Positions 1 through 47,414 of a DNA stretch of 63,736 nucleotides are shown in pieces (positions within the stretch are counted from its first letter, which is position 1; every line of letters begins with the position of its first letter). The DNA lies in the IMG/VR virus record IMGVR_UViG_3300037467_001854, positions 1 through 63,736 of that record; one strand, given 5' to 3'. The notes under the pieces are model-generated. The model was not told where the DNA came from. It made no database searches and was given only the letters and a program-made list of their open reading frames with translations. This DNA is from a virus (taxonomy: Duplodnaviria; Caudoviricetes). The position numbers and the translations under genes were made by a program.

Positions 1-127
1 GCCATGGTTTTTCTCCTTAGTTGTGGACTGTCGCGCCAGCACTAAACTCGCTTTGTTGCTGCGGTTTCGTGCTGCGTTGAATACAGATTAGTATTCATGA
101 AAAATACAGTCAAGGATTATTTTCAAA
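1..127. repeat. Terminal direct repeat, copy 1 (circular assembly overlap)
   Basis: Bases 1-127 are identical to 63610-63736; 127 is a common assembler k-mer length. Confidence 0.95.
80..95. promoter_or_regulatory. Putative phage repressor operator AATAC-N6-GTATT
   Basis: AATACAGATTAGTATT in the AT-rich divergent region between terS and the leftward operon; the same palindrome recurs genome-wide. Confidence 0.65.
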
Positions 128-171
128 TATTTTGTTGTCCTTGAAAATCAACGAGTTAGCCTGGCTTCAGA

Positions 172-1104
172 ATGGCAAAACAACAGTCAGTAACGGAAAG
201 CAACATCAAGCCAGCATCCGAAAACGTATCAAAACGTGATGCAAGATGGCAACAAAGGATTCATGAGCTGGCCGGCATGAGCAAACCGGACGCATTCCGG
301 AAAGCTTCAGAGATCGCCGAAGCGGCCGCATTCACGAAAGAGCAGGAGCTGAAGCTCGGACGGAAAATCACGCGGCGGGAACGATCGGCAATGCTCCGCG
401 CCATGCGGGATGGCATTCAATCCGCCGTCCATGTAGGGGCGAACATCCGCCGTGGAGACATGCCACGGGATGACATCCTCAAGAGAGCCCAAGAGAGCCC
501 GGACGCATTACGGGCCGAGATCATAGCGGCCAGTCCGCACAATCCCGAACTAGCAGAGAGAGTAGCGGCCATGGCAGGAATGGACGATCTGAAATTTCAC
601 GCGGCGGAAAGTCTCCACAGTGGAACGCCCACGGATACCGCTCCGCTCCCAGTAGCAGGAAAGAGAGAGAGAGGACGCCCAAGCTCCTATACGCCAGCAA
701 TAGCGGATGAACTGTGCCAGTGGATCCAGAGCGGCAAAAGCCTGCAGGCATGGTGCAAACATAGCGGCACGCCGGCGAGTACGGTCTATCGGTGGATGCG
801 GGAATATGAGAGTTTCCGCAAGTCCTATGCGCAGGCGCATGAGGATCGCGCGGATACGCTCGTCGAGGACATGCTGGAAATCGCCGACACGGTCGCAGGC
901 GCCAGCATGCCGGCGGAAGTGATGGCGGCGAAGCTCCGGATCGAAACGCGCCAGTGGATCGCAGAGAGAATGCGGCCGGATAAGTACGGCCAGCGGATCG
1001 AAGTCCAGCACAAGCAACCGGTATCCTTCAGTTTCGGCATTCCGCCCCGGACGAAGCCTGTACAAATCGAAGGCGAACCGGCCGCAAACCCGCATGAATC
1101 CTAG
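172..1104 (+). CDS. terS: Terminase small subunit with N-terminal extension
   Basis: C-terminal half RGRPSSYTPAIADELCQWIQSGKSL...TVYRWM...KLRIETRQWIAERMRPDKYG resembles Sf6-type TerS; lies upstream of terL. Confidence 0.8.
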   Translation: MAKQQSVTESNIKPASENVSKRDARWQQRIHELAGMSKPDAFRKASEIAEAAAFTKEQELKLGRKITRRERSAMLRAMRDGIQSAVHVGANIRRGDMPRDDILKRAQESPDALRAEIIAASPHNPELAERVAAMAGMDDLKFHAAESLHSGTPTDTAPLPVAGKRERGRPSSYTPAIADELCQWIQSGKSLQAWCKHSGTPASTVYRWMREYESFRKSYAQAHEDRADTLVEDMLEIADTVAGASMPAEVMAAKLRIETRQWIAERMRPDKYGQRIEVQHKQPVSFSFGIPPRTKPVQIEGEPAANPHES

Positions 1105-1431
1105 CTCGAAGACCGGATGTTGAATCCGTTCGTCTACCCGAAAACGTGATCGATGCAAAGCCGGCGCCCAGAGAGCCCGGAAAAAAAGATCCCCCCTTCA
1201 CAGGGCCGGGGATTTTTTTCTGCCTTCTCTCTCCCATAGGAGAGAGCCCCCCCGGGGTGGCCCCCCCCTGCTGGACCACAGCCGTCACCCCCCAGGGGGC
1301 ATTGAGCCTCCACATACACCCCTACGCCCGCACTTGCCGCCTCCAGTAAGCACCCAAGCTCATATTTGCAAATGTGCAACCAATAGCAACTATAATGTTT
1401 CCATTAGCAAATAATGCAAAGGGGATTGGGC

Positions 1432-1860
1432 ATGAAGTATCAGCTATTCGCCGCACTCGGTGCGCTATTCATCGCAGGCTGTTCCACTACCGCGATTCAG
1501 GTAAAGGAGGCCACGCAAGCCCCTGAGACACAGGTTCGGTTCCATAACAACCTGCCGGCACAAGGTAATGCTCGAGCCGTTTTTGTACGAGACACTGGCC
1601 TATTTGGCGCGGGGGTCTTCCAACATCTTTTCATTGATGGAGAGGAAGCTGCCGTGCTGAATCCTGGCGAGAAGGTGGAGCTGATCTTACCGCCGGGCGA
1701 ACACATATTCGGCGTTCAGCCAACCGACCCGTTTGGGTTCGCTACGATGAATTCCATCGACCAAGATCTGAAGGCCGACCGTAGCTACTTCTATCGAATC
1801 ATGATGCAAGGCGAAGATGGAATGAGCACGGTGCAGCGATTCATTCCTCCAGCTAAGTAG
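1432..1860 (+). CDS. Lipoprotein (moron)
   Basis: Signal peptide with lipobox FIAGC; lower GC; AT-rich upstream region containing TATAAT. Confidence 0.8.
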   Translation: MKYQLFAALGALFIAGCSTTAIQVKEATQAPETQVRFHNNLPAQGNARAVFVRDTGLFGAGVFQHLFIDGEEAAVLNPGEKVELILPPGEHIFGVQPTDPFGFATMNSIDQDLKADRSYFYRIMMQGEDGMSTVQRFIPPAK

Positions 1861-1929
1861 GTTCAGCCCTACGCTCGCAGTCGCTGCCTCGGGTATGCCT
1901 CGAGGTCTCCAGTGCTGGAACAGGTCAGG

Positions 1930-2298
1930 CTACGATGCCATTTTCTTGGCGACCATGAGGAGCAGGGAGCGCATGGCGACAACCAGTTCAACGCTGTCGG
2001 CCGGCTTGGAGAAGGCAAGAGTCATTTCATCGATTGGGTACGCATCGAAAGCCGTACCAGACACGATGATTGCGGGGAGATCCGGCCGGTCGCGGCGCAT
2101 CAGCGCGAGCATCTCTCCGCCGCTCATGTGAGGCATTCGATAGTCCGTGATCACGATATCAGCAGCATCACGTTGAAATATCTGCATTGCAATGAGCGCA
2201 TTTGTTGCGGTGGACACGCGATACCCGTAAATCTTGAGAATCTCGGCAAGCAGGTATAGCCCATCCTCGTCATCGTCGACGATCAAAACGTGTTGCAT
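1930..2298 (-). CDS. Stand-alone response regulator receiver (CheY-like) protein
   Basis: VLIVDDD, ITDYRMP (phospho-Asp), IVSG and SKP motifs; AGAGGA RBS before ATG 2298. Confidence 0.9.
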   Translation of the reverse strand: MQHVLIVDDDEDGLYLLAEILKIYGYRVSTATNALIAMQIFQRDAADIVITDYRMPHMSGGEMLALMRRDRPDLPAIIVSGTAFDAYPIDEMTLAFSKPADSVELVVAMRSLLLMVAKKMAS

Positions 2299-2577
2299 GT
2301 ACCGGTTCCTCTGTAGCTCAAGCGAATAGCAGTGCCTGGTCCAGTCCAAGGAAGTCCGGGCACGATACTAATTGGTTGCTGGGAGTCTACATCCGTTCAT
2401 GACTTTTTGTCTTAGACAAAATTTATTGATTTTCCTAAATCCATCGATGCGACCTCCCATGTGGACCAGGCGAGTCGACCCGGGAGGGGGAGGGTCTGAG
2501 CCCAAAAATTTTTTCACGTTCCCATAAAGGCTTACCCCGGTTGTTACAATAAAGCAAATAATCAACAGGAGCTGGGC

Positions 2578-2880
2578 ATGAAGAAATGGATCCTCTTCGC
2601 GCTACTGGCCGCGGGCCAGGCGCAGGCGCAGGCGCTTTACTATGTTTCCGGAAACAAGCTCTCCAGTCTCGATGAGACTGACCGGGCCTTCTACGTTGCC
2701 GGAGTGATTGACACCGCTGGGCGGACGGATCCGCGGTGAGCCTGCTTTCCGAACACCGTACCAATCGGCCAGATGAGGAAGATCGTCGACGCCTACATGA
2801 CGAATCACCCGGAGCAGCTCCACAAGGACTCCTCGATCATGGTGACTGCTGCCATCAGCGAAGCCTTCCCCTGCAAATAG
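2578..2880 (+). pseudogene. Rap1a/Tai-like periplasmic immunity protein interrupted by in-frame TGA (2737-2739)
   Basis: AGGAG RBS; manual translation MKKWILFALLAAGQAQAQ...SGNKL...FYVAGVID...PR*ACFPNTVPIGQMRKIVDAYMTNHPEQLHKDSSIMVTAAISEAFPCK fits the Rap1a pattern; absent from the ORF track. Confidence 0.75.
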
Positions 2881-2891
2881 GCTTTCCGCTC

Positions 2892-2913
2892 CTGTACATC
2901 CATCCAGTAGAAT
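2892..2913 (+). promoter_or_regulatory. LexA (SOS)-type box abutting a TAGAAT -10 element
   Basis: CTGTACATCCATCCAG (2892-2907) is one mismatch from CTGT-N8-ACAG; TAGAAT at 2908-2913. Confidence 0.65.
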
Positions 2914-2920
2914 CCTGGCA

Positions 2921-3030
2921 CGCGGTGCGCCACGCTTTGGCGCTGAAGCCGGCAGGGCCAACGTGGGTCTCGTAGAGAGAAGGCGACCACGCCTGCCGAA
3001 TAAGCCGGGGGATTAGCGCTCGGCGCCGCG
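2921..3030 (+). ncRNA. Putative cloverleaf-like structured RNA or terL leader
   Basis: Closing stem 2921-2926/3025-3030; arms 2927-2932/2938-2943, 2950-2956/2992-2998 (inner 2962-2966/2987-2991) and 3004-3009/3019-3024; no ATG in the region. Confidence 0.45.
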
Positions 3031-3117
3031 CCCCCTCAATTCCCCGCCGGCCACCGTTCGTTGTGGCCGGTCATCCCCTTCGTACCATCCAGCGCATCTC
3101 ACTCCACCGGTGCGCTC

Positions 3118-4557
3118 ATGCTCATTTCCTACAAGCCGCCCGGGCCGGTCGCCGAATCCTTCCATGCCGACAGCTCCTTCGTGCGCGGCATTAAGGGGCC
3201 GATCGGCTCGGGCAAGTCGACCTGCTGCTGCATGGAGATCATCACGCGCGCCGTCGAGCAAGCGCCTGATGAACAGGGTGTGCGCCGGTCGCGCTCCATC
3301 GTCTGCCGCAACACCTACCCCGAGCTGAAGTCCACGACCATCAAGACCTGGATGGACTGGTTCGGCGACATCTGCACGATGAAGTGGGACGCGCCGATCA
3401 CCGGCACCATCGACATCATGCTGCCTGACGGCACGCGGCTCTGGCACGAGGCCATCTTCCTAGCCATCGATCGCCCTGATGACGTCGGCAAGCTCAAGTC
3501 GCTGGAGGCCACCTTCGCCTGGATGAACGAGGCCAGCGAAATGGAGAAGGCCGTCCTCGACCTGCTGACCGGCCGCGTCGGCCGCTTCCCGTCGAAACGG
3601 ATGGGCGGGCCGACCTGGACGGGGGTCCTGATGGACACGAACCCGCCGGATGACGATCACTGGTTCTACAAGCTCGACGAAGAGAAGCCGGAAGGCTACC
3701 GCTTCTTCCACCAGCCTGGCGGGCTGATGCGGATCACCGACGAGAAGGATCCGCGCTACGGGCAGTGGGTGCCGAACCCCGCAGCGGAAAACGTCGAGAA
3801 CCTGCCAGGCGGATTCGAGTACTACCTCCGGCAGCGCGCCGGCAAGTCCGAGGATTACATCAAGGTCATGCTGGGCGGGCAGTACGGATCCACGATGACG
3901 GGCAAGCCGGTCTACCCGGAGTGGAACGACAAGGTGCATCTGGCCGACGAGCCGCTGATCGCCATCCCGCAGGTTCCCATCGTTGTCGCCTTCGACTTCG
4001 GCCTGACGCCCGCGGCGGTCCTCGGGCAGCAAGCCCCGGGCGGGCGCGCCAACGTGCTGCGCGAGTACACCACCGAGGACATGGGCATCCGCCAGTTTTA
4101 CACGACGGTGGTGAAGCCGGCGCTGAACACCGAGTTCTCGGGCTTCCGCTTCGAATTCGTCGGCGACCCTGCCGGCGCGGGGCGCAGCCAGAACGACGAG
4201 AAGTCCTGCTTCGAGACCCTGCTCGAGCTGGGCTGCGTCTGCGAGCCTGCCAGCACGAACGACTTCCTCGGGCGCCGCGAGGCGGTGGCCTTCTTCCTCC
4301 AGACCATGGCCGCGGGCGAGCCGGCGTTCATGCTCGACCCGTCCTGCAAAACCCTGCGCAAGGGATTCAACGGCGGCTATCGCTTCGAGCGCGTGCTCGT
4401 GGGCGGCAGCACCAGCCGCTACAAAGACAAGCCCGTGAAGGACAGGTTCTCGCACCCGCACGATGCGCTGCAGTACCTCGCGCTGAAGCTGCGCGGTGAC
4501 GCGAACCCTGTCCGCGTTCGGCCCGTAGAACAATCCTCGATGAATGGATGGACCTGA
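3118..4557 (+). CDS. terL: Terminase large subunit
   Basis: Walker A GPIGSGKST, Walker B AWMNEA, DTNPP coupling motif, nuclease AFDFG and HPHDALQY. Confidence 0.95.
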   Translation: MLISYKPPGPVAESFHADSSFVRGIKGPIGSGKSTCCCMEIITRAVEQAPDEQGVRRSRSIVCRNTYPELKSTTIKTWMDWFGDICTMKWDAPITGTIDIMLPDGTRLWHEAIFLAIDRPDDVGKLKSLEATFAWMNEASEMEKAVLDLLTGRVGRFPSKRMGGPTWTGVLMDTNPPDDDHWFYKLDEEKPEGYRFFHQPGGLMRITDEKDPRYGQWVPNPAAENVENLPGGFEYYLRQRAGKSEDYIKVMLGGQYGSTMTGKPVYPEWNDKVHLADEPLIAIPQVPIVVAFDFGLTPAAVLGQQAPGGRANVLREYTTEDMGIRQFYTTVVKPALNTEFSGFRFEFVGDPAGAGRSQNDEKSCFETLLELGCVCEPASTNDFLGRREAVAFFLQTMAAGEPAFMLDPSCKTLRKGFNGGYRFERVLVGGSTSRYKDKPVKDRFSHPHDALQYLALKLRGDANPVRVRPVEQSSMNGWT

Positions 4558-6563
4558 TGCCTGCACTCCTTCGACCCGTGCCGCCCGAGGCACCCGCACC
4601 GACCTTTGATGGCAAGACCGTCGAAGGCTCGGCAATGCTCAACCTGACGGCGCATGTGCGCCAGTGCTATTCCGAGGCGCAGAGCGCGAAGACGGAGATC
4701 ACCCGCCGGCTGCTGACCTGCCAGCGCCAGCGCCGCGGCGAGTACGAGCCCGACAAGGCGGCGCAGATCCGCGCCACCGGCGGCAGCGACATCTACATGA
4801 TGCTCACCGACATCAAGTGCCGCGCGGCCGAGAGCTGGATCAAGGACGTCCTGATGAATGCGCAGGACAAGCCGTGGAGCATGCGGCCGACGCCGATCCC
4901 CGACCTGCCGCCGGAGATGAAGGCGGACATCGTCGAGCATCTGGTCCAGGAGGCGATGCAGGCCCAGCAGATGACGGGCATCCCGCTGCAGAGCGACGCC
5001 ATCAGCGCCCGCATGGACGAGCTCATGCAGGAGGTCAACGAAGCGCTCATGAAGAAGGCCAAGGAAGCCTCCGACAACATGGAGCGCAAGATGGCCGACA
5101 TCCTGACGGAGTCGAACTTCGACGATGTCTATGCCGAGGTAATCAACGACTTCTGCACCTACCCGACCGCCTTCCTGAAGGGGCCGGTGGTGAAGAAGAG
5201 GAAGGGGCTGAAGTGGGGGCCGAACTTCACGCCGGAGGTCACCGACGAGATCGGCCGCGGCTTCTACCGCGTGTCGCCGTTCGATGCCTTCCCGTGCCCG
5301 AACGCCACCGGCGTCAACGACGAGTACTTCATCGAGCGCATCCGCCTGAACCGCAAGACCCTGCAGGGCATGATCGGCATGCCGGGGAATAACGACGGCC
5401 AGATCAAGCAGGTCCTCGACCTGTACGGCCGCAATGGGCTGAAGTTCTGGCGCGACGGCGACTCCGAGACCGAGCGCCTCGACGGCAAGCACGGCACCTA
5501 CCACAGCCGCGGCATCATCGAGGGCTTCGAATACTGGGGCGCGGTCTCTGGCCAGATGCTGCAGGAATGGGGCATGAAGAACGTGGATCCGTACAAGGAC
5601 TACGAGGCCAACGTCTGGGTGGTCGGCCCGTTCACCATCCGCTGCGTGCTGAACTCCGATCCGCTGGGACGCCGGCCCTACGAGGCGGCGAGCTTCGTGA
5701 AGAACCCGGGATCGATCTGGGGCCAGGCGCTGCCAGAGCTGATGTCGGATGTGCAGACGATGTGCAACGCCGCTGCTCGCGCGCTGGCCAACAACATGTC
5801 GATCTCCTCCGGCCCGCAGGTCGAGGTGGATGTCTCCCGCCTGCCTGCCGGCGCGGCCGTGACCTCAATGTACCCGTGGAAGATCTGGCAGACCACCAGC
5901 TCCGCGGCCAACGGCAACTCGCCGGCGATCCGCTTCTTCCAGCCCGACATGAACGCCGAATCCCTGCTGGGGATCCTGCAGCAATTCACCCGCATGGCCG
6001 ACGAGGTCACCGGCGTGCCGAATTACATCTACGGCAGCAGCGCGGTTTCCGGCGCCGGCCGCACGGCTTCCGGCCTGTCGATGCTGATGGAGAACGCGGC
6101 CAAGGGCATCAAGCATGCCATCCTGTCGCTCGACCGCGGCGTGTCCGGAATGCTGCGCCGCCTGTTCGAACACCTGATGATCTACGACCCGGATCCGTCG
6201 ATCAAGGGCGACATGGATCTCGTGCCTTCCGGCGTGGTGGCCACCATCATCAAGGACAACGTCCAGCTCCGCCGGCAGGAGTTCCTGCAGGCCACGAGCA
6301 ACCCGATCGACATCCAGATCCTCGGTATCGAGGGCAGGGCGGAGCTGCTGCGCCAGCTCGCCAAGGGTCTCGACATGGACGTCAACGACATCATCCCGAG
6401 CGCAGCGGCCTTGAAGCAGAAGCAGCTCGCCATGGCACAGATGGCCCAGATGCAGGCGGCGCAAGCCGGCGCTCCCGGCGGCGCGCTGCCGCCGCCTGGA
6501 GGCGCACCCCAGCAACAGCCGCCCGCGCCGCAGGGTCTGCCCAACGCCAGCCCTGCCGGTTGA
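4557..6563 (+). CDS. Portal protein
   Basis: Follows terL with TGATG overlap; about 670 aa with a Gln/Pro-rich C-terminal tail typical of podoviral portals. Confidence 0.85.
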   Translation: MPALLRPVPPEAPAPTFDGKTVEGSAMLNLTAHVRQCYSEAQSAKTEITRRLLTCQRQRRGEYEPDKAAQIRATGGSDIYMMLTDIKCRAAESWIKDVLMNAQDKPWSMRPTPIPDLPPEMKADIVEHLVQEAMQAQQMTGIPLQSDAISARMDELMQEVNEALMKKAKEASDNMERKMADILTESNFDDVYAEVINDFCTYPTAFLKGPVVKKRKGLKWGPNFTPEVTDEIGRGFYRVSPFDAFPCPNATGVNDEYFIERIRLNRKTLQGMIGMPGNNDGQIKQVLDLYGRNGLKFWRDGDSETERLDGKHGTYHSRGIIEGFEYWGAVSGQMLQEWGMKNVDPYKDYEANVWVVGPFTIRCVLNSDPLGRRPYEAASFVKNPGSIWGQALPELMSDVQTMCNAAARALANNMSISSGPQVEVDVSRLPAGAAVTSMYPWKIWQTTSSAANGNSPAIRFFQPDMNAESLLGILQQFTRMADEVTGVPNYIYGSSAVSGAGRTASGLSMLMENAAKGIKHAILSLDRGVSGMLRRLFEHLMIYDPDPSIKGDMDLVPSGVVATIIKDNVQLRRQEFLQATSNPIDIQILGIEGRAELLRQLAKGLDMDVNDIIPSAAALKQKQLAMAQMAQMQAAQAGAPGGALPPPGGAPQQQPPAPQGLPNASPAG

Positions 6564-7977: not shown

Positions 7978-8916
7978 ATGTCCGTAGCAGTCAGCGGCGA
8001 TCTGTACGGCGCCGGAGCAGGCGTCGACAACTACGTCGGGAAGTTCATTCCCGAGGTATGGTCCGGCAAGCTGGCCGTCAAGTTCTATCTGGCGACCTGC
8101 CTGACCGAAATCACCAACAACGATTGGGAAGGCGAGATCAAGGACCAAGGCGACAAGGTCAAGATCCGCTCCGTCCCGACCGTCACCATTCGTGACTACT
8201 CGAAGGGTCAGACCCTGCAGACCGAGCGTCCGGGCACCACCGTCATCGAGCTGGTGGTCGACAAGGCGAAGTACTTCGCTGTCGTGGTCGACGACGTCGA
8301 TGCCGTGCAGGCCGACATCAAGCTGATGGACCAGTTCGGTCAGGACGCTGCAGAGCAGATGAAGATCGCCGTGGAATCGAGCGTCTTCGCTGTGGTGTAT
8401 GCCGAAGCGCATGCGAAGAACCAGGGTGCGAACGCCGGCATCAAGTCGGGCGACATCAACCTGGGCGCAGCCGGCGCGCCGCTGCAGATCACCAAGGCCA
8501 ACGTCCTCGACTGGATCGTGGACATGGGCCTGGTGCTCGACGAGCAGAACGTGCCGGAAACCGGCCGCTGGCTGCTCCTGCCGGCGTGGGTCTGCGCAAT
8601 GATCAAGAAGTCCGATCTGCGCGAAGCCTCGATCTCCGGCGACGGCACCTCCATCCTGCGGAACGGCCGCGTGGGCATGATCGATCGCTTCACGATCTAC
8701 TCCAGCAACAATCTGCCGCAGGGCGTGGACGGCGCCGTCACCGCCTACGAGGTGATGGCTGGCACCCGCGATGCGATCTCCTTCGCTTCGCAGATCACCA
8801 AGACCGAGTCCATCCGCTCGGAAACCACCTTCGGTGACCTGCTCCGCGGCCTCAACGTCTTCGGCTTCGAAGTCACCAAGCCGGAAGCGCTGGTCCACAG
8901 CCACATCCAGAAGTAA
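7978..8916 (+). CDS. Major capsid protein
   Basis: FIPEVWS...WEGEIKDQGDKVKI and RGLNVFG motifs typical of P22-coat-like MCPs; followed by a terminator. Confidence 0.9.
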   Translation: MSVAVSGDLYGAGAGVDNYVGKFIPEVWSGKLAVKFYLATCLTEITNNDWEGEIKDQGDKVKIRSVPTVTIRDYSKGQTLQTERPGTTVIELVVDKAKYFAVVVDDVDAVQADIKLMDQFGQDAAEQMKIAVESSVFAVVYAEAHAKNQGANAGIKSGDINLGAAGAPLQITKANVLDWIVDMGLVLDEQNVPETGRWLLLPAWVCAMIKKSDLREASISGDGTSILRNGRVGMIDRFTIYSSNNLPQGVDGAVTAYEVMAGTRDAISFASQITKTESIRSETTFGDLLRGLNVFGFEVTKPEALVHSHIQK

Positions 8917-25548: not shown

Positions 25549-25940
25549 AATCCCTGCTGCGCGAGCGCGCAATCCTGATCGGCCTCGGGCTGGTCGTGTA
25601 CATCGGCAAGATCGTGATCCTGCCGCTCTGGCTGTATGCCGTGCTGTTCGATCCCGACCGCGCACGGAACATGCTCTTTGCCAGCGACTGCTTCTACAAC
25701 GCCGCCTTCAACGGCGACCCGCACCAGACGATCTCGCTGCGCGCCTACTTCGGGACGCAGGCGGGGAGCAAGCGGTGGTGCCTGCTTTGCAAATTCCTGG
25801 CCTATTTCCAGAAGAACCACTGCGAGCTGACGGCCAGGAACGCCGGCGTCATCGCGCCCGCGCCGGCGGTCACGGTTCCCGCTGTGGAGACTCCGAGGTT
25901 TGATAGCGTTCCGCTGTCCAACCAGCCTCCCTCGCAATGA
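25536..25940 (+). CDS. Hypothetical membrane protein
   Basis: N-terminal TM segment; NGDPHQTISLRA...LC...HC motif. Confidence 0.6.
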   Translation: MDQVKSLLRERAILIGLGLVVYIGKIVILPLWLYAVLFDPDRARNMLFASDCFYNAAFNGDPHQTISLRAYFGTQAGSKRWCLLCKFLAYFQKNHCELTARNAGVIAPAPAVTVPAVETPRFDSVPLSNQPPSQ

Positions 25941-26365
25941 GAATCGATCCGGAACAGAAGCCCGAATACTTCGCCTGGGCCAGCAAGGCCCTCGACGCGA
26001 AGTATTCGTATGAGGACGGTTGCCGCGTATTCACCCATCTGCATGACGATGGGCGGATCGCGGCAGTGGTCGTATACAGCCGCTTCCACGAGACCAACTG
26101 CGAGATGTCCATCGCGAGCGACGGAAGCCGCCGGTGGATCACGCGCCGCTTCGCTGCCATGGCTTTCGCCTATCCCTTCATCACGCTGAAGAAACGCCGC
26201 GTCATGGGGATCGTGAAGGAGGACAACGAAGCTGCGCTGCGCCTCGATGCCAAGCTGGGATTCCAGTTCGAAGGCCGGCTGCGCAAATGGTTCGGCGACA
26301 AGGACGGCATTCTCCTCGGCATGCTGAAGGAAGAGTGCGTGTGGATTCGAGGACTCGACAAATGA
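25937..26365 (+). CDS. GNAT-family acetyltransferase
   Basis: DNEAALRL...KLGFQFEG motif; position before podoviral ejection genes. Confidence 0.85.
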   Translation: MRIDPEQKPEYFAWASKALDAKYSYEDGCRVFTHLHDDGRIAAVVVYSRFHETNCEMSIASDGSRRWITRRFAAMAFAYPFITLKKRRVMGIVKEDNEAALRLDAKLGFQFEGRLRKWFGDKDGILLGMLKEECVWIRGLDK

Positions 26366-29135: not shown

Positions 29136-32100
29136 ATGGCTGACTACCAAGAGTACGATCCAGAGCTGGATCCGCCCGCGGACTCCGGCACCTACCAGCC
29201 CGACACCACTTCCGACTCCGATTCGCAGGACACGCCCTCGGCGCTGCCGGTGCGAACCCGGAGCCGGAAGAACCTCGTGCCGTACTCGAAGAATGCGCCG
29301 GACGTCAGCGTCGACGATCTGTCCAATTTCGACTTCAAGTCCCTCGTGCCGAAGCCGCCGGCCAAGCCCGCATCGGCCGCGCAGAAGGGCACCTGGGACA
29401 GGATCAAGGATGCGGCCGGCACTGTGGCCAGCTCCGTCGCCGGCGGCGTCAGCGATGACATCCACGCGGTCGGCGACAAGGTCAGGCACCTGATCTCCGG
29501 CGAGCCGGACATGGGCGTCATGGGCAAGCCGCTGGCACCGGAGCTGCAGAAGGCTCCGCCCGCCGCTGCCCAGCCGCCGGTTCGCCCCGGCCTGCGCCGC
29601 GCCATGGAAGCGGCCTACGACTCCGCCACCCCGGAGCAGCGCGTCCGCATGGCCAACGCCCCGGGCGCAATGGGCGACATCGCGCGCCAGCGCGAGGCGA
29701 TCTACGGCGAGTCGCAGGGTCTGCCCAGCCAGAACGCGCTCGACCCGTCCGCCGAGGCGCGCACCTCCCGCATGATCAGCGGTGGCATGGCCGGCGACAC
29801 CGCGCAGAACTGGGGCCGGGGTGCGGCCGCGCGCGGCGACATCCCGGGCGACGAAGTCGGACAGGCGACGCCGTCGAACTTCGATTTCGAGACCGCCCGC
29901 AAATTCAAGGAAGAACCGCTCTGGTCGCATCCGCTGATGCGCGCGGCCGTCAAGGGCGTCGAGGGCTACAAGCAGGGCGTCATCGGCGTGGCCGAGTGGA
30001 TGGCCGACCTCACCGGTCAGGACGGCGCCGGCCGGGATCTGGCGAAGATGAATGCCGACAGCCAGGCGAAGACCGATGCGATCGGCGAATCCCCGTTCTA
30101 TGCCCAGCGCATGTTCGAAGGCGCTGTCTCCTCCATCGCCCAGCAGCTCCCGATGATCGGCGCTGGCGTCGTGACCGGCTCCGAGGCGCTGCCGCTGGCC
30201 GGCATGTTCGTGCAGTCCTACGGCCAGAACTACGCCGAGTCGCGCGCGGCGGGGCAGGATGTCTCGACCGCGACCGACCGCGCCGGCCTGATGGCGGCGC
30301 TGGAAGTCATCGGCGAGAAGTTCGGCCTGCACGACCAGATGCACGGCATCAAGGCCGCGGCCGGCGGCGACGTCGAGAAGGCCATCAACCTGATGGTGAA
30401 GGCCGGCATCAAGGAAGTCCCGGGCGAGGAGCTGACCACCACCGGCCAGTTCGGTGTCGACATTTCCAGCGTCGGCCTGCACAAGGAGCAGACCCTGAAG
30501 GATCTCGCCGAGCAGATCCGCGACACCGCGGTGCAGACGATGATCCAGAGCGGCATGATGACCGCCGGCACCCATGCGCTGGGCACCGCGGCGAACAAGC
30601 TCGCGCCGGCGGACGGCGCCGTGCCGCCGACCACCCGCGAGCCGCAGGGTGACATCCGCGCGCAGATCCGCGCAATGATGGATCCGAAGAACCCGAAGGA
30701 TGCCGTCTTCATCGCCAAGGGCACTCCCGTCGACGAGGCCGACATCCCCGACGATGTCATCCGCGTCGACCGGGAAGAGGGCACCCTGCTCACCACGAAT
30801 CCGCGCAAGGCGAACACCTTCAACCACGAGGACGTCCTCACCGACCGCACCATGGCCAACATCCTCGGCATCCCAGAGGACAAGGGGCAGGCGGTGGGCA
30901 CCGGTCAGGAAACCGTGATCCAGGCCACCGACAAGGACGGCAACGTGGTCAACGAGGCGGTCGACGGCGGCAGCGGCGCGAATGCGCAAGCCGTTGGCGC
31001 AACCGTGCCAGAAGGTGGCGCACTGCAGGCGCTGACCCCGGAAGAGGCGCAGCGCCGCCGCGCGCTGCTCGCGCAGCAGGAGAACGTCGTTCCGGGCGAG
31101 GACGATTCCGAGCAGGTCAAGAAGCTGCTCGAGGGCGTGCAGACCGTCGACGAGGACGGCAACCCCGTGCAGCCGCCGGCGCAGCAGGAGCAGACCCCGC
31201 CGCAGCAGCAGGCTCCAGCCGAGCAGACGCCGCCGGAGCAGCAGCCTGCCGCCGAGCAGCCGCCGGCGCAGACCCCGGAGCAGGCGCCGGAACAGCAGCC
31301 GCCGGTCGAGAACCCGCCGCAGCAGCCCGCGCCGCCGGAACAGACCCCGCCGCAGGAGCAGACGCCGCCGGAAGAGCAGAAGCCGCAGCTCCCCGACCGC
31401 GCCCCGCTGACGCCGGAGGAGCGCGACAAGGCGCGCAAGGCCTACGAGGAGCAGACGAAGGCCCGCCGCGCGCTGCTGAAACCGAAGACCCCGGAGGCCA
31501 AGCAGACGCTGTCCCAGCGCCGCGTCGCCTTCGGGCAGGCCATCGGCGCGGAAATCAACGAGGGCGGCACCCTGCTGCGCGGCGCGGATAGCCGGCCGCT
31601 GTCGGACGCGCTGCGGCAGGGGAGCGTGCGCTCTGTGATCCACGCGCTGACGAAGTCGAAGAACCACATCAGCCGCGTGATCGGCCACATGCTGGCCAAG
31701 GATCCGACGATCGCCCTGTCCATCGATGACAAGCTCATCGACAAGCGCGTCGGCCCGACCCGCAACAAGAACATCGACGATGCCCGCCGCTGGGTCGGGA
31801 CGCTCGACGCCGTGCGCGCGGTTCGCCGCACCATGGAGAACTACTCCGGCGCCGGCCTGCCCACCGCCGTGCTGCGCCATGTCGTGGTGCCTGCCGGCGC
31901 GCTGCATTCGGTGAAGTCCGCGGTCACGCTGGGCAAGATGCTGCGCCAGCACGGCGTTACGAATCGCGCCCAGTTCATGAAATTCGCCGAAGCCATGGAG
32001 CAGGCCGCGGTCGGGCACGAGAAGGCCGCGCGGGCGAACGCCTCTGCCAACCATGTCCAGAACCCGCAGACCGTGCAGGGGCTGTACGACCACGATGGCC

Positions 32101-35100
32101 ATGCCGTCCGCATGCGCGCGAGCCGCGCCTCCGACGAGCTGGTGGTCACGCACGAGATCACCCATGCGCTGACCGTCGCCGCCATCATGCATCCGAACGA
32201 GATGCAGAAGCCGTATGTCCAGAAGCTGGAGAAGCTGTTCGCCTATGTGCGCAGCCACCCGCTGCTCAGTGGTCAGTATGGTCTGGTGAACCTGCGCGAG
32301 TTCATCGCCGAGGGCTTCGGCAATCCGGAATTCCAGTTCCGCCTTTCCGAGATCCCCTACGAGTCCGACACCGCATGGGGCAAGTTCACGAAGATGATTG
32401 CCTCCCTGCTGGGCATGAAGCACTCCACCGCCTTCACCGAAATGATGGCTCTGGGCGAAGGCATCATGTCCAACAACACGGTCAAGGAACAGCGCTCCAT
32501 GGCCGACAAGCAGAAGGCGGCGAAGGAGAAGGCGGCGAAGAAGGGCAAGCAGGCCTCCACGCCGCACCTGTCGGAATCCGTAGACGAGCTGCACCGGCAG
32601 AAGGATGAAGTCGCCGGCGACCGCTTCAAGCTCCCGAAGGAAACCCGCTCGCGCTACCTGCAGGCGGCGCTGCAGGACAACTTCAACCGCGTCAACCAGG
32701 TGCAGCGCGCCGTGCAGCAGCAGGGCGGCACGGTCGATTCCGGCTCCGACATCTACGCCGCGCACGAGCGCTTCTCCGGGCAGGCCGCGGCGAAGACGGG
32801 CTGGTTCACGAAGTACACCGTCAAGCCGCTGATCCGCGACATGGGGCGCGCCGGCGTCGACATCAACGACCTGGCCCTGTACATGTACGCCCGCCATGCG
32901 GCCGAGCGCAACAAGCGCATCGCCGACATCAACGGCCGCTTTCCTGACGGCGGATCCGGCATGACGAATGCCGAGGCGGCGAACCTGCTGCAGATGTTCG
33001 CCCAGCACCCGAAGGCTGCGCAGATCAAGGCCTATGCCGCGCGCTTCGACCAGATCATCAAGGACACGCAGAAGGTCATGATCGACGGCGGTCTGGTGGA
33101 TCCGAACGTGGTCGCCGCATGGAATGCCGGCTATCAGCATTACGTCCCGCTGAAGGGCTTCGAGAAGCTCGACGAGCTGGGCACGAAGCAGATCGGCGCC
33201 GGCCGCGGCTTCGATGTGCGCGGCACGGAATCCATCCGCGCGCTGGGGCGCGAGAGCAAGGCTGGCCAGATCCTCGAGAACATCATCATGGATCACGAGC
33301 GCGCCATCGTCCGCGCCGAAAAGAACAAGGTCGCCCGCGCGCTGCTGAAGTTCGTGCGCCAGAACCCGGATGACAAGCTGTGGGATGTGAACCGCGTCGT
33401 GCTGAAGCCGTACTTCCAGAAGTCCGGCCTGCCGCCGACCCCGGGCCAGCTCCTCGATGGCGAAGTCCGCTACCGCAACGAGAAGATGAAGGATCCTGCG
33501 CGCACCGTCACCGCCAAGGTGAACGGGCAGGAGTACCACATCATGATCAACGATCCGCGGATGCTCGAGCAACTCGTCGGGGAGAAGGGCGCGCTGAACA
33601 TGGAAGGCGCGAGCGGCAAGTTCTTTCGCGCATGGTCTGCCATCAACCGCACCCTCACCAAGCTCTGGACTGCGTGGAACCCCGTCTTCACGGTGACCAA
33701 CTTCACCCGCGACTTCCTGACCGCCGCCATCAACGGCGGATCCGAGCTGGGGCCGGCGTTCGCCGCCAAGGTGGCCGCGTATTCGTTCCAGGCCATCGGC
33801 CCGATCGCGCGGCACGACATGGCTTCCAACGACATCCAGCTCGCGGCGAACCGCGGCTCGCACAACATCCCGAAGACCTGGCGCGAGCTGTACAAGCAAT
33901 ATCAGGAGGACGGCGGCAAGGCGGGCTTCTACGTCTTCGCCGAGCTGGAGGACAAGCAGCGCGAGCTGGAGCGCGCCTGGAAGCAGGCCGAGCGCATGAA
34001 CACGGTGTCGATGCGCGCCATGGCCGGCAAGGCGATGGACGCCATCCATCTGCTCGACGAGGCGATCACGGATCTGAACTCCGGCTTCGAGAATGCCACC
34101 CGCGTCGCCGCCTACCGCGCCGCGCTGGAGATGGGCAAGTCCCGCGCCGAGGCTGCATCGATCGCCAAGAACCTGACGGTGAACTTCAACCGCCGCGGCA
34201 CCCTGTCGCCGATGCTGGGATCCTTCTACCTGTTCTTCAATCCGTCCGTGCAGGGTCTGGCCCGCATGGCACGGGCGGCGAAGCGCTCCCCGAAGACCTT
34301 CGGCGTGCTGACCGCCGGCCTCGTGGCCACGGGCCTGATGGCGGCGTGGATGGGCGCAGGCGACAAGGACGAGGACGGCGTCCCATACTGGGACAAGACC
34401 GTGCCCGACTACGAGAAGCAGAAGAACCTGATCTTCATGATGGGCGGCGGCAATCGGCTGACGATCCCGCTGGCCTACGGCTACGGCTGGTTCGTGCATC
34501 TGGGCTACGGCCTGATGGACGCCATGCGCGGCCGCAGCCCGACCGCCGTCGCGCTCGAGCTGGCGAACTCCGCCATGAACCACTTCTCACCGGTGAACAT
34601 CGATATCGGCGGCAACCTCGTCACCGCGATCACGCCGACTCTGGCAGGCCCGATGGTCGAACACTGGACCAACATCAAGTCCACCGGCCAGCCGCTGCGC
34701 CCGCCGGCGCAACGCATGGACGGCACCCCGGTTCCGGATTCCGAGCGCTACTGGAGCGGCACCCGCGATTCCGCAGGGGAGCGCGTGACCACCTTCCTGA
34801 ACGAGGCGACGGGCGGCAACAGCTCGGCCCCGGGCCTGATCTCGGTCTCGCCGGAGGTGGCCAAGAACTATGTCAAGGGATACCTCGGCGGCGCCGGCAG
34901 CTTCGTCTACGATCTCGTGAATACCACCCAGCTCGGCATGACGGAGGGCTGGGAAGAGGTCGCGAACCAGAATGCCGCCCCGGGCATCAAGCAATTCTTC
35001 AAGCGCAATGCCAACAGCAAGGGCGAGCAGCGCTTCTTCATGGAGCATTCGAAGGAAGCCCTGCAGGCGCTGGACGAGTTCAAGCACTACTACGACTCGG

Positions 35101-35351
35101 AGGATCCCGCGCTGCAGGCGAAGTTCGAACGCAACGACGGGCTGATCCAGCTCGGCGCGGCAGTCTCCGGCATCGCCCGGGCGACGTCCGATCTGCGCAA
35201 GATGGATCTCGCCGCCATCAGCGACACGAGCCTGTCGGATGCCGAGCGCAAAGCAGCGCGCAAGGAGATCGATGATCAGCGCGCCGAACTCTGGCGGAAG
35301 TGGAACAACGAGTTCTACAAGAACGACTGGGGCATCAAGTCCGACAAATAA
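29136..35351 (+). CDS. Large polyvalent ejection protein with zincin-like HExxH and LPD38-like C-terminus
   Basis: 2071 aa; THEITH...REFIAE; ENATRVAAY, NLTVNFNRRG and YLFFNPSVQG motifs. Confidence 0.8.
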   Translation: MADYQEYDPELDPPADSGTYQPDTTSDSDSQDTPSALPVRTRSRKNLVPYSKNAPDVSVDDLSNFDFKSLVPKPPAKPASAAQKGTWDRIKDAAGTVASSVAGGVSDDIHAVGDKVRHLISGEPDMGVMGKPLAPELQKAPPAAAQPPVRPGLRRAMEAAYDSATPEQRVRMANAPGAMGDIARQREAIYGESQGLPSQNALDPSAEARTSRMISGGMAGDTAQNWGRGAAARGDIPGDEVGQATPSNFDFETARKFKEEPLWSHPLMRAAVKGVEGYKQGVIGVAEWMADLTGQDGAGRDLAKMNADSQAKTDAIGESPFYAQRMFEGAVSSIAQQLPMIGAGVVTGSEALPLAGMFVQSYGQNYAESRAAGQDVSTATDRAGLMAALEVIGEKFGLHDQMHGIKAAAGGDVEKAINLMVKAGIKEVPGEELTTTGQFGVDISSVGLHKEQTLKDLAEQIRDTAVQTMIQSGMMTAGTHALGTAANKLAPADGAVPPTTREPQGDIRAQIRAMMDPKNPKDAVFIAKGTPVDEADIPDDVIRVDREEGTLLTTNPRKANTFNHEDVLTDRTMANILGIPEDKGQAVGTGQETVIQATDKDGNVVNEAVDGGSGANAQAVGATVPEGGALQALTPEEAQRRRALLAQQENVVPGEDDSEQVKKLLEGVQTVDEDGNPVQPPAQQEQTPPQQQAPAEQTPPEQQPAAEQPPAQTPEQAPEQQPPVENPPQQPAPPEQTPPQEQTPPEEQKPQLPDRAPLTPEERDKARKAYEEQTKARRALLKPKTPEAKQTLSQRRVAFGQAIGAEINEGGTLLRGADSRPLSDALRQGSVRSVIHALTKSKNHISRVIGHMLAKDPTIALSIDDKLIDKRVGPTRNKNIDDARRWVGTLDAVRAVRRTMENYSGAGLPTAVLRHVVVPAGALHSVKSAVTLGKMLRQHGVTNRAQFMKFAEAMEQAAVGHEKAARANASANHVQNPQTVQGLYDHDGHAVRMRASRASDELVVTHEITHALTVAAIMHPNEMQKPYVQKLEKLFAYVRSHPLLSGQYGLVNLREFIAEGFGNPEFQFRLSEIPYESDTAWGKFTKMIASLLGMKHSTAFTEMMALGEGIMSNNTVKEQRSMADKQKAAKEKAAKKGKQASTPHLSESVDELHRQKDEVAGDRFKLPKETRSRYLQAALQDNFNRVNQVQRAVQQQGGTVDSGSDIYAAHERFSGQAAAKTGWFTKYTVKPLIRDMGRAGVDINDLALYMYARHAAERNKRIADINGRFPDGGSGMTNAEAANLLQMFAQHPKAAQIKAYAARFDQIIKDTQKVMIDGGLVDPNVVAAWNAGYQHYVPLKGFEKLDELGTKQIGAGRGFDVRGTESIRALGRESKAGQILENIIMDHERAIVRAEKNKVARALLKFVRQNPDDKLWDVNRVVLKPYFQKSGLPPTPGQLLDGEVRYRNEKMKDPARTVTAKVNGQEYHIMINDPRMLEQLVGEKGALNMEGASGKFFRAWSAINRTLTKLWTAWNPVFTVTNFTRDFLTAAINGGSELGPAFAAKVAAYSFQAIGPIARHDMASNDIQLAANRGSHNIPKTWRELYKQYQEDGGKAGFYVFAELEDKQRELERAWKQAERMNTVSMRAMAGKAMDAIHLLDEAITDLNSGFENATRVAAYRAALEMGKSRAEAASIAKNLTVNFNRRGTLSPMLGSFYLFFNPSVQGLARMARAAKRSPKTFGVLTAGLVATGLMAAWMGAGDKDEDGVPYWDKTVPDYEKQKNLIFMMGGGNRLTIPLAYGYGWFVHLGYGLMDAMRGRSPTAVALELANSAMNHFSPVNIDIGGNLVTAITPTLAGPMVEHWTNIKSTGQPLRPPAQRMDGTPVPDSERYWSGTRDSAGERVTTFLNEATGGNSSAPGLISVSPEVAKNYVKGYLGGAGSFVYDLVNTTQLGMTEGWEEVANQNAAPGIKQFFKRNANSKGEQRFFMEHSKEALQALDEFKHYYDSEDPALQAKFERNDGLIQLGAAVSGIARATSDLRKMDLAAISDTSLSDAERKAARKEIDDQRAELWRKWNNEFYKNDWGIKSDK
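31165..31392 (+). repeat. Low-complexity Pro/Gln/Glu repeat linker within the large ejection protein
   Basis: Repeated EQTPP / QQP units. Confidence 0.8.
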
Positions 35352-39475: not shown

Positions 39476-40459
39476 ATGTCAATCTTCTTACGCGGCAAAA
39501 CGTGGTGGATGGAGGTCACGGTCAACGGCAAGCCGGCGCGCAAATCCGCCAAGACCGCCGATGAGGAAGTCGCCCGCCTGAAGGAGCAGCTCTGGAAGGC
39601 AGAGGTTCGCGAGCAGGCGGCGGGGCCGCGCCGTCCTGCCGCCGGCCGCACATGGCAGGAAGCCTGCGACCGCTGGATCGCCGACCACGCCGACAAGCGC
39701 AGCCACGCGGATGACCTGCGTTACGCGGCATGGTGGAATGAGAAGTTGAAGGGCAAGACGCTCGCCCAGCTCGACCGCCACGACATCAACGCCATCCTCG
39801 AGCGCCGCGCGCGGGACTCCTCGCATTCCACGGCCAACCGCTACCGCGCCTTCTTCACCGCCGTCATCAACGCAGCCGTCGAGGAATGCGACTGGCTCGA
39901 CACGCCCATCAAGGTCAAGCGCTTCCGCGAGCCGAAGGGGATCGTGCGCTTCATGACGATGGAGCAGATCGAGCGCCTGCTGGCGGAGCTGCCGCAGCAT
40001 CAGCGGGACATGGCGGAATTCGCGCTGGCCACCGGCGCGCGGCAGGCGGCGGTCAAGCGGCTGAAGTGGTCGGCCGTGAATCTGGACAAGGCCATGGCGT
40101 GGATCGTGCCGGAGGATTCCAAATCCGGCGAGCCGGTGCCGATGCCGCTGAATGCCACCGCCCGGGAGGTACTGGCGCGCTGCCGCGGAAACCACGCCGA
40201 GTTCGTCTTCACCTACGAGGGAAACCCGATCGCCAACGTGAACACGCAGGCATGGGTCAAGGCGCTGCGCCGCGCGGGACTGGAGGGCTTCCGCTGGCAC
40301 GACATCCGCCACACCTGGGCCAGCCACCACGCCATGAACGGAACCCCGCTGCAGGCGCTGCAGGCAATGGGCGGATGGTCGGATCCGAAGATGGTGAAGC
40401 GCTATGCCCACCTGTCTCCGGAATCGCTGCAGCGGTTCGCTGCCAACGCCGCACGGTAG
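39476..40459 (+). CDS. Tyrosine recombinase / integrase (P22-like)
   Basis: TGAR, SKSG, HDIRH, GGW and RYAHL catalytic motifs intact; AAGGAG RBS. Confidence 0.92.
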   Translation: MSIFLRGKTWWMEVTVNGKPARKSAKTADEEVARLKEQLWKAEVREQAAGPRRPAAGRTWQEACDRWIADHADKRSHADDLRYAAWWNEKLKGKTLAQLDRHDINAILERRARDSSHSTANRYRAFFTAVINAAVEECDWLDTPIKVKRFREPKGIVRFMTMEQIERLLAELPQHQRDMAEFALATGARQAAVKRLKWSAVNLDKAMAWIVPEDSKSGEPVPMPLNATAREVLARCRGNHAEFVFTYEGNPIANVNTQAWVKALRRAGLEGFRWHDIRHTWASHHAMNGTPLQALQAMGGWSDPKMVKRYAHLSPESLQRFAANAAR

Positions 40460-40927: not shown

Positions 40928-41947
40928 TCAGGAATACTTCGCGTGGAGATCCTCCGCGCGGAGCTGCGTATAGCGCTGCAGCATCTTCCAGTCCCGGTGG
41001 CCTGAGACAAGGGCCACCTGTTCAATCGCATATCCCTTCTCAAACAGCCGCGACACGCCCTCGTGCCGGAAGTCGTGGAACCGCAGATCCTTGATGCCCA
41101 GCTCCTGACACGCGCGCGGGAAGATCGTGCTGATGGTGGATTCCTTGTAGGGGAAAATCAGCTCGCCGTCCCGCGGCTGCGCCATGACGATGTCGAACGC
41201 CTCGCCCAGCAGCGGCACGATCTGGTCGTTGCCTGTCTTCTCGGTCGGATGCTTGCGGTCGCGGATGACGATGGTGCGCTTCTTCTGGTCCAGGTCCTCC
41301 CAGCGCAGCCGCGTGATCTCGCCGGCGCGCATGGCCGAGGCCACAGCGAAGCGGATGATGGCGGACATCGGCACCTTCTGCCGCGGCTTCGTGTCGAAGT
41401 AGTGGCACAGCCGCTTGATCTCGTCAGCGGTGGGGCGGCGGTCGCGCTCCCGGGACTTCATCGAGATCCCGATGTACTTCAGCCGCTCGCGCGCCTCGGT
41501 AATGGCGTCCTTGTCCACCGGGATCTTCCACAGCGTCTTGGCAATCTTCAGAACACCGCCGAGGTAGGTGAGGTCGATGCCGATGGTGACGCCGCCCGCG
41601 CCGGCGCGCCGCCGCTCGTCGACGAACTTGTTGATGGTGTCGGCATCGATCTCGGCCACGGTCTTCTCGCCGAGCTTTTCCTGCAGCATGGCCAGCACCG
41701 CGGCCTTGTTCTTGCCGAACGGCCGCACCTCGCCGACCTCCTGCCGGTAGCGGGCAATAAGATCGCCGAGCGTTATAGAATGCTGCCTTTTCTCTTCGCT
41801 GAAGCGTCCAGCATCCATTTCCGCTTCCGTCTTGCGCGCCCACTCCACGGCGAGAGCCTTCGTGGGGAAGGAGCGCGTGATGGATTTGTAGCCCTTGCGG
41901 CGGATGTCGGCGACCCAGCTATTGTCACGTTTTCGAATGGAAGGCAT
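40928..41947 (-). CDS. int: Tyrosine integrase, dusA-associated (Rci-like) type
   Basis: SAMRAGEI, RDRKHP, FHDFRHE and SGHRDWKMLQRYT motifs; adjacent attP with a dusA-like 5' end. Confidence 0.93.
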   Translation of the reverse strand: MPSIRKRDNSWVADIRRKGYKSITRSFPTKALAVEWARKTEAEMDAGRFSEEKRQHSITLGDLIARYRQEVGEVRPFGKNKAAVLAMLQEKLGEKTVAEIDADTINKFVDERRRAGAGGVTIGIDLTYLGGVLKIAKTLWKIPVDKDAITEARERLKYIGISMKSRERDRRPTADEIKRLCHYFDTKPRQKVPMSAIIRFAVASAMRAGEITRLRWEDLDQKKRTIVIRDRKHPTEKTGNDQIVPLLGEAFDIVMAQPRDGELIFPYKESTISTIFPRACQELGIKDLRFHDFRHEGVSRLFEKGYAIEQVALVSGHRDWKMLQRYTQLRAEDLHAKYS

Positions 41948-46751: not shown

Positions 46752-47414
46752 TTACAGACCAAGGTGTTCAAGTCTCCCAAGGGCTCGACCTACCACCTTG
46801 AGTTGTTTGTGGTCCTTGGAGGACAAGGTGATGCTAGGGTACTTAGAGTTGTCGCAGGAGATAAGAATGTCACCCGTTAGCTGCTGGGACAACCGCCTGA
46901 TCTTTAGATTTTTCCCCACCCAGATCAAGTAAAGACCGCTTCTAGTTATGTCTTTCTCTGCCTTGTTTATCAAGACAATGTCGTATCGATGAAGGGTTGG
47001 CTCCATTTCATCGTCAATAATCGTACAGAATCCCAATTGGGATTCGTCTACTTCTGGATAACGGACTTGAAGGAATTTTGAATTTATTAGGAGAGTGGAT
47101 CCAGCAAAGTCGATCGGATCCTTCTGTGTGCTTTCAATGCGGTCTACCTTTGTGACAAGGCTTCTGTCTTCATACCCATCAGCCTCCTGGTCCAGCCAGC
47201 CTGTAGGCACGTTCGCAGCGGACTCAAGTTCTCTCGCATTTCTCTCACCTATATTGCGTCGGAGAGATTCATTACTCGATAAATAAAGGTTGATCGTATT
47301 TACGTTTTTACCGACCTGTCGGGCAAAGTTTGAACGATTGCCTTCATATTTTTGTTCTATTAACGACAGGAGGTTTTTCCTCCTTTTCTCGTAGACGTCC
47401 ATTGATAGTTCCAT
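46752..47414 (-). CDS. cI: CI-like repressor (HTH plus degenerate S24 domain)
   Basis: N-terminal HTH (RRKNL...NFARQVG...RNIGERNARELE...GWLD); S24-like C-terminus; low GC; divergent from the cro-like gene. Confidence 0.88.
   Translation of the reverse strand: MELSMDVYEKRRKNLLSLIEQKYEGNRSNFARQVGKNVNTINLYLSSNESLRRNIGERNARELESAANVPTGWLDQEADGYEDRSLVTKVDRIESTQKDPIDFAGSTLLINSKFLQVRYPEVDESQLGFCTIIDDEMEPTLHRYDIVLINKAEKDITRSGLYLIWVGKNLKIRRLSQQLTGDILISCDNSKYPSITLSSKDHKQLKVVGRALGRLEHLGL

Follow-up and report, generated by a model that had tools for sequence, protein, structure and literature searches.

How does a temperate phage read its packaging genes when other DNA has come between its two terminase genes, and could the host's SOS repressor, LexA, have a part in this? 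The question is raised by IMGVR_UViG_3300037467_001854, a complete IMG/VR virus record of 63,736 bases (the whole of which is referred to here as the window) whose repeated ends indicate a circular assembly. Judged by its genes, it is a temperate, lambdoid-type podophage, and its DNA occurs in soil and rhizosphere metagenomes. A 237-nt gap (2881-3117) separates a moron cassette from terL, the gene for the large subunit of terminase. Within this gap lies a palindrome that resembles a LexA (SOS) box, here called box 1, and a -10-like hexamer follows it directly. A similar palindrome, box 2, is found in the immunity region of the same genome. The explanation that we favour, tentatively and a little short of an even chance, is that the gap carries a LexA-gated and probably activator-dependent promoter that restarts transcription into terL. 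A first-pass annotation had further proposed that a cloverleaf regulatory RNA is made from this gap; this cloverleaf or non-coding RNA reading is not supported. The features on which the argument turns are as follows.

2892-2907: box 1, a LexA (SOS) box-like palindrome, CTGTACATCCATCCAG; 17.6 bits for 2890-2909
2908-2913, plus strand: -10-like hexamer TAGAAT, abutting box 1; five of six consensus positions
2921-3030, plus strand: proposed four-way-junction fold, unsupported as a functional RNA
3046-3071, plus strand: strong GC hairpin with a 9-bp stem and an 8-nt loop; -17.9 kcal/mol, z -4.42, none of 200 shuffles as stable
3091-3116, plus strand: 8-bp hairpin; -11.4 kcal/mol, z -3.3, one of 200 shuffles as stable
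3118-4557, plus strand: terL, terminase large subunit (PHROG phrog_2, 1.7e-22; tblastn matches to phage TerL proteins)
47743-47758: box 2, LexA box-like, CTGTATGCATTTCCAG, between the cI-like repressor gene and the cro-like gene; 18.7 bits for 47741-47760, the best in the genome

LexA box-like sites in the phage genome

Box 1 is a palindrome of 16 bp in which CTG and CAG enclose an AT-rich centre, and it agrees with the consensus of Gamma- and Betaproteobacterial LexA boxes (CTGT-N8-ACAG) at 12 of 16 positions. It reads CCAG in place of ACAG, and the same variant, a C at position 13, is found in 7 of 18 E. coli sites. These 18 sites, taken from Table 4 of PMC3009722, were used to build a symmetrised 20-nt scoring matrix, which may not fit the LexA of the host. 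Across the genome the third-best site scored only 9.15 bits after boxes 2 and 1, and both boxes fall within the leave-one-out scores of the E. coli sites themselves (6.6-27.6 bits). The first-pass annotation had described an SOS box abutting TAGAAT and differing by a single base from the core of the E. coli sulA box. Both statements hold, the hexamer lying directly next to box 1 and the one-base difference agreeing with the sulA site as listed in Table 4 of PMC3009722.

Sites of this quality are rare by several comparisons. A score of at least 17.6 bits was reached in none of 500 dinucleotide shuffles of the whole genome and in 5 of 500 shuffles made in 500-nt blocks, which keep the local composition, and two sites of at least 17 bits never occurred together in 500 shuffles of either kind. 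About 780 kb of DNA from related phages and prophages contained no site of at least 17 bits; the best scores elsewhere were 14.6 bits in the loci of other phages and 13.3 bits in 80 prophage loci (520,513 bases). The genome has 17 CTG-N10-CAG sites, and boxes 1 and 2, both intergenic, are the only ones to reach 12 of 16 consensus matches. The two boxes also share CTGTA-N6-TCCAGTA exactly, in identical orientation. Three other LexA motif types showed no enrichment in the genome. With a score in the range of verified E. coli sites, a twin in the immunity region, no such pair in the shuffles and no comparable site in the related DNA, the LexA reading of box 1 stands up in silico, and boxes 1 and 2 are very probably real LexA-type operators, provided that the host uses an E. 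coli-type motif.

Box 2 lies between the following two genes.

46752-47414, minus strand: CI-like repressor with an S24 peptidase domain (PF00717, 1.9e-8; phrog_6201 and phrog_4)
From ATG 47857: cro-like gene, with replication genes and RusA beyond

The intergenic region between them (47415-47856) is 442 nt, unusually long and AT-rich. A 20-nt direct repeat (47436-47455 and 47471-47490) adjoins cI and overlaps a minus-strand TAGAAT; from their position and sequence, these repeats are likely to be operators of the phage repressor. Inverted repeats are present at 47659-47668/47713-47722 and at 47525-47534/47592-47601, and the palindrome GCATAAAGCTGTATGC shares bases with box 2. No relative of the CI-like repressor was found with which its operators could be compared.

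The location of box 2, in the region where operators are expected, and the exact match between the two boxes in the same orientation would also suit a scheme in which both are operators of the phage's own CI-like repressor, silencing the early region and the terL promoter in the manner of mycobacteriophage stoperators. We regard this as distinctly improbable. The N-terminal part of the repressor matches families of phage transcriptional regulators and is read from its sequence as a putative XRE-type helix-turn-helix rather than a LexA-type DNA-binding domain, the 442-nt region holds one copy of the box only and has a different 20-nt direct repeat beside cI, and the sites fit the LexA matrix in their flanks and AT-rich centre as well as in their ends.

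A candidate promoter for terL

The genome contains four copies of the hexamer TAGAAT where 7.7 would be expected, and three of them precede terL, the cro-like gene and cI, each oriented toward its gene. This placement supports a role for the hexamer as a -10 element, as far as position and sequence can indicate one. E. coli recA has the same layout, with a box followed directly by TATAA (PMC3009722, Table 4). No pair of sigma-70 -35 and -10 hexamers 16-18 nt apart with at least 9 of 12 matches was found before terL. A sigma-54 promoter (TGGCACG at 2916) was considered and rejected, this motif being at chance level in the genome (six matches against 4.7 expected). Activator-dependent late promoters are known to combine a good -10 with a poor -35, and the poor -35 here suggests that a phage activator is needed.

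The interval between terS and terL gives such a promoter something to do. The two genes are separated by about 2 kb of DNA with a lower GC content than the rest (about 55% versus about 65%), in which the following were recognised.

172-1104, plus strand: terS, Sf6-type small terminase (phrog_1482, 1.1e-41; PF20901, 7.8e-32)
1183-1222: intrinsic-terminator-like hairpin with an A7 run before it and a U7 run after it; -16.4 kcal/mol, 80 nt past the terS stop
From ATG 1433, the likely start (with a ribosome-binding site), not 1414: lipoprotein gene, a moron (phrog_890)
1933-2298, minus strand, opposite to terS and terL: CheY-like receiver-domain moron with a single domain (Pfam PF00072, 6.8e-19)
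2578-2880, plus strand: Rap1a-like moron (type VI immunity family) with a signal peptide (Pfam PF18602, 9.5e-11, in the C-terminal part)

The A7-hairpin-U7 element after terS has the appearance of a bidirectional terminator. Together with the opposite-strand receiver gene, this hairpin and its U7 run are the grounds for supposing that transcription has to be restarted before terL. Beyond the hairpin, within 1183-1250, there are also a perfect 8-bp hairpin (CTCTCTCC/GGAGAGAG) and C-rich and G-rich runs. The moron cluster itself (1105-2577) is in an unusual position.

In the mechanism that we propose, an operator for host LexA would occupy the spacer of a sigma-70-type promoter and abut its -10, TAGAAT. 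In the lysogen, LexA bound to 2892-2907 would block RNA polymerase. Upon DNA damage, RecA-stimulated cleavage of LexA would free the promoter, with transcription starting near 2920 and a phage activator probably also being required. Transcription would thus restart into terL and the same-strand structural genes, bypassing the moron gene on the opposite strand as well as the terminator-like hairpin that follows terS; terL opens a same-strand structural block that extends to about 35351. The twin box in the cI/cro region would act as a second LexA hold, on the early region.

Several observations weigh against this mechanism. The best -35 candidates have two of six matches, so that no acceptable -35 is present, and a consensus promoter scan of 1-6000 called zero promoters. 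The TA that opens TAGAAT is also the usual flank of a LexA box (8 of 18 E. coli sites), and the abutting -10 is therefore partly a by-product of box 1. In a decoy test with 64 palindrome ends around an AT-rich centre, two of the 64, one of them CTG, had at least two sites, which means that the shuffles understate how common AT-rich-centred palindromes are here. The best -35 candidate for the cro-like gene begins some 30 nt downstream of box 2 and is not covered by it. Since the phage encodes an S24-type repressor of its own, it does not need control by LexA in order to respond to SOS induction. No relative has the box before terL, most relatives having a gene that abuts terL, and a relative whose terL is about 89% identical at the nucleotide level, from an RNA-run contig, differs in sequence upstream as far as the ATG and has an AAGGAG ribosome-binding site there. 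The contigs of the single RNA run come from relatives only, leave the leader uncovered, and say nothing on its expression. Finally, the capsid protein gave weak matches only in Burkholderiales genomes, so that an E. coli-type motif is no more than presumed for the host's LexA.

Some of the same evidence would suit the view that box 1 has no function, being a chance or relic box in a junction scar, with late transcripts that begin upstream of terS and, as in lambdoid phages, read past the moron insert through antitermination. The looser pattern CTGT-N9-CAG is indeed at chance level (seven matches versus 6.4 expected), there is neither a -35 nor a promoter call, the leader is conserved in no relative and its fold is not above chance, and the genome is laid out in the lambdoid way. 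We consider this rather unlikely, because the two intergenic boxes have scores typical of E. coli sites and never occur together in 500 shuffles or in about 780 kb of related DNA. Nor was a Q-type antiterminator recognised among the phage genes in family searches, and opposite-strand genes at 61239-63614 part the early genes from terS.

The leader and the proposed cloverleaf RNA

The gap between the morons and terL has a GC content of about 68-70%, like the phage core and unlike the morons (about 55%). A coding reading of the leader was rejected, since there is no ATG within 2914-3117, no codon-position GC signal (2911-3060), and no Pfam match for overlapping open reading frames on either strand; the missing codon-position signal marks the gap as non-coding. 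The first-pass annotation was thus right that no ATG lies between TAGAAT and terL.

It had also described a 110-nt four-way junction at 2921-3030, and this structure is the minimum-energy fold of the segment on its own, at -53.1 kcal/mol (z -1.71; a stability matched by 10 of 200 shuffles). With flanking sequence, however, the excess of stability is lost (z -0.64 for 2914-3120 and -0.65 for 2921-3080). The pairing probability of the closing stem falls from 0.96 in the 110 nt alone to 0.66 in 2921-3075, 0.05 in 2914-3120 and 0.00 in longer contexts, and in the 2921-3075 RNA the pairing probabilities of the four-way fold are about 0.5-0.7. The reverse strand of the segment folds almost as well (z -1.33). 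The fold energy lies within the lowest 1.4% of 579 GC-matched windows of the genome, a position that is unsurprising for a segment picked by eye from 63 kb.

The Rfam search that the first-pass annotation had called for gave no match at the gathering score in the whole window, the C4 antisense RNA family included. A local Rfam scan with E values up to 10 returned only sX9 (13.4 bits versus a cut-off of 44; E 5.6) and sul1 (12.5 versus 36.2; E 9.6), so the suggested likeness to P1 C4 or P4 CI RNA found no backing at either level. ARAGORN called no tRNA-like or tmRNA-like gene in the window. Searches of viral, metagenome and genome contigs provided no diverged homologue of the leader for covariation, the only other copy being identical, and the metagenome DNA contigs spanning the leader show no difference from the window. 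An exact scan of viral contigs for the box together with the -10 returned the same phage only, and blastn searches of phages and plasmids gave no match. As a cloverleaf regulatory RNA, the segment shows no stability excess with its flanks and a fold that depends on context.

Two explanations would still give the leader a role as RNA. In the first, it is a functional structured RNA, either a cloverleaf antirepressor in the manner of P1 C4 and P4 CI or a cis element that makes RNA polymerase resistant to terminators; the put element of HK022 acts in cis in this latter way. That 2921-3030 folds into the junction at minimum energy, with a value in the lowest 1.4% of GC-matched windows, that the fold begins where a transcript from TAGAAT would begin, and that a strong hairpin and a long operon lie downstream are all consistent with such a role. 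A best z of -1.71 that drops to -0.65 with flanks for a segment picked by eye, a fold that vanishes in longer contexts, a reverse strand at z -1.33, and the absence both of an Rfam match and of homologues for covariation argue the other way, and we find this explanation highly improbable. In the second, more elaborate version, two LexA control points, at the cI/cro switch and at the packaging and structural operon, would be joined to a four-way-junction RNA of about 110 nt that acts either in cis, as a protein-independent antiterminator taking RNA polymerase past the 3046-3071 hairpin and along the 32-kb late operon, or in trans, as an antirepressor; to this combination we give only a very slight chance. 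The GC-rich leader is most likely a plain 5' untranslated region and not a cloverleaf RNA kept by conservation.

Two hairpins closer to terL fared better. The second hairpin that had been placed near 3047-3070 is stable at 3046-3071. Its tail, TCATCCCCTTCG, has no U-run, and the hairpin was absent from the list of a terminator scan, so the intrinsic-terminator test was negative here. The 3091-3116 hairpin ends 3 nt before the terL ATG, over the expected Shine-Dalgarno position. Under the LexA-gated promoter, the 3046-3071 hairpin might dampen read-through and the 3091-3116 hairpin might dampen terL translation. The ATG at 3118 is the start of terL, as homologue alignments begin at residue 1-3. 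The first-pass annotation had given terL this start with a weak Shine-Dalgarno motif; the start stands, but no Shine-Dalgarno-like motif is present in the 25 nt before the ATG, although 17 of 26 starts checked have one.

The junction before terL

The leader differs from that of the close relative, and most of the more distant relatives have a gene abutting terL; it is therefore a recent, lineage-specific junction and not a conserved terL leader. On its left side, the Rap1a-like gene ends in a TAG at 2878-2880, 11 nt ahead of box 1, and contains an in-frame TGA in the middle of its domain (2737-2739) that reads alike in an identical second contig. This moron is probably a pseudogene, to judge from its reading frame. 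Contigs of four sequencing runs leave 2708-2809 uncovered, from which nothing was drawn, and a search for relatives of the gene returned just the same phage.

Alternatively, box 1 and TAGAAT could be functional but belong to the inserted cassette, as the orphan SOS promoter of a decayed moron, driving only a transcript of about 150 nt that ends at 3046-3071, with terL served by a late transcript from upstream. The short transcript would then be either a small RNA induced by SOS or what is left of a cargo gene since lost. The broken Rap1a-like gene next to box 1 is in keeping with this view, as is the right edge of the leader, which falls exactly at the terL ATG, where the close relative differs, and so fits a mosaic insert; the strong 3046-3071 hairpin could end such a transcript, and the four-way fold keeps its intermediate pairing probabilities (about 0.5-0.7) in a 2921-3075 RNA. 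Yet that hairpin lacks a U-run and is not called a terminator, the 160-nt RNA is no more stable than shuffles (z -0.65), the segment has no small open reading frame with an ATG and no codon-position GC signal over 2911-3060, and the GC content of the leader is that of the phage core and not that of the morons. We think it unlikely that the promoter is an orphan of this kind.

One relative with 61% identity, from a 60-kb phage, likewise has a non-coding gap and a terminator-like hairpin in the roughly 300 nt ahead of terL, with 1.2 kb between there and its terS. Separation of terS from terL may thus recur in this lineage.

Relatives and the question of the host

TerL is at most 46% identical to the proteins of cultured phages and at most 63% identical to those of uncultured phages, except for one identical 4.6-kb contig. 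Searches with terL found 25 loci in viral contigs (the identical copy, the others at most 63% identical) and 16 loci in metagenome contigs, all at most 63%; in genome contigs, the single protein gave none and an alignment gave 80 loci that were kept. The capsid protein had just three weak matches in 401 Burkholderiales genomes, and the portal protein had two distant matches in five genomes. Phages with relatives of an internal virion protein have Gamma- and Betaproteobacterial hosts, namely Vibrio, E. coli (Stx phages), Ralstonia, Burkholderia, Achromobacter and Aeromonas. The hosts of these related phages suggest an E. coli-type LexA motif in the present host as well. No partial tRNA marking attP, which could have served as a clue to the host, was found near the integrase genes.

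Comparison with known LexA-controlled promoters

Prophages are well known to carry LexA boxes at their antirepressor or early promoters, and LexA-repressed prophage promoters include those of coliphage 186 tum, the Gifsy phages (antirepressor) and PrstA of CTXphi. As in the present phage, a host LexA box couples a prophage promoter to DNA damage in these systems; the gene that they control is an antirepressor or an early gene, whereas no open reading frame lies between box 1 and terL. E. coli recA and sulA have SOS promoters with good -35 elements. They are chromosomal SOS genes, in contrast to the present case, in which the -35 is poor and the downstream gene encodes terminase. The leader resembles the P1 C4 and P4 CI antisense RNAs only in that, by eye, it seems to form a multi-arm fold and belongs to a temperate phage; it has no Rfam match.

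To our knowledge, direct LexA gating of packaging or virion genes has been worked out only for the tectivirus GIL01. In this phage of Bacillus thuringiensis, according to PMC6182141, P1 (early) and P3 (late, for virion and lysis genes) are both repressed by LexA together with gp7, and P3 has a further requirement for the activator gp6. GIL01 P3 therefore offers a precedent for a LexA-gated late promoter. The resemblance, as far as that account of GIL01 goes, lies in host LexA sites at an early or lysogeny promoter and at a late-gene promoter, matched here by a box in the cI/cro region and a box before terL as read from sequence; and in an activator-needing P3, matched by a -10 with a poor -35 before terL. 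The differences are equally clear. GIL01 has no dedicated repressor and uses LexA-gp7 on tandem boxes of the Gram-positive LexA motif, whereas the present phage has its own S24 repressor, single E. coli-type boxes and a lambdoid podophage genome.

Prophage LexA boxes are thus of a known kind, and a LexA box placed where the packaging and structural operon begins, in a phage with its own cleavable repressor, would be an unusual variant of them. A full-text literature search for a LexA box, a terminase and a prophage in this arrangement returned none, judged on titles and abstracts, which is thin evidence of absence. If LexA binds, a lambdoid-type phage with its own cleavable repressor would have a second, independent SOS checkpoint on its late genes. 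Such an arrangement may have arisen because the moron insert cut terL off from terS, and, if true, it would show a moron insertion rewiring late-gene control. Should the reading of an RNA of about 110 nt prove true, it would represent an undescribed class of RNA tied to the SOS response. Because the evidence is in silico and the RNA is unsupported, the present value of the locus is that of a cheap, well-defined test case.

Other features of the phage genome

The remaining gene content is that of a lambdoid phage, with an integrase, an exonuclease, cI, a cro-like gene, replication genes and RusA. Two head genes of the structural block were placed as follows.

4548-6563: portal
7978-8916: major head protein

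A pair of tyrosine integrase genes sits on opposite strands a short distance apart (39476-40459, plus; 40928-41947, minus). The minus-strand gene block at 61239-63614, directly upstream of terS, includes a PAPS-reductase-like protein (phrog_424) and a phrog_2554 protein. As this block parts the early genes from the packaging genes, the late promoter must lie in the AT-rich 170 nt ahead of terS, which contain the inverted repeat GAATAC-N6-GTATTC. Within the structural block, 29136-35351 encodes a giant virion-associated protein of 2,071 residues (phrog_14770, 5.6e-151), and an acyl-CoA N-acyltransferase is encoded at 25937-26365; this pair presumably recalls the large Bcep22-like podophages of Burkholderia. 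In the early region, the open reading frame 50584-51357 ends in a weak C-terminal PEP-CTERM sorting motif, with a Pfam E value of 2e-4 that is slightly above the cut-off, which would hint at an exosortase-bearing host.

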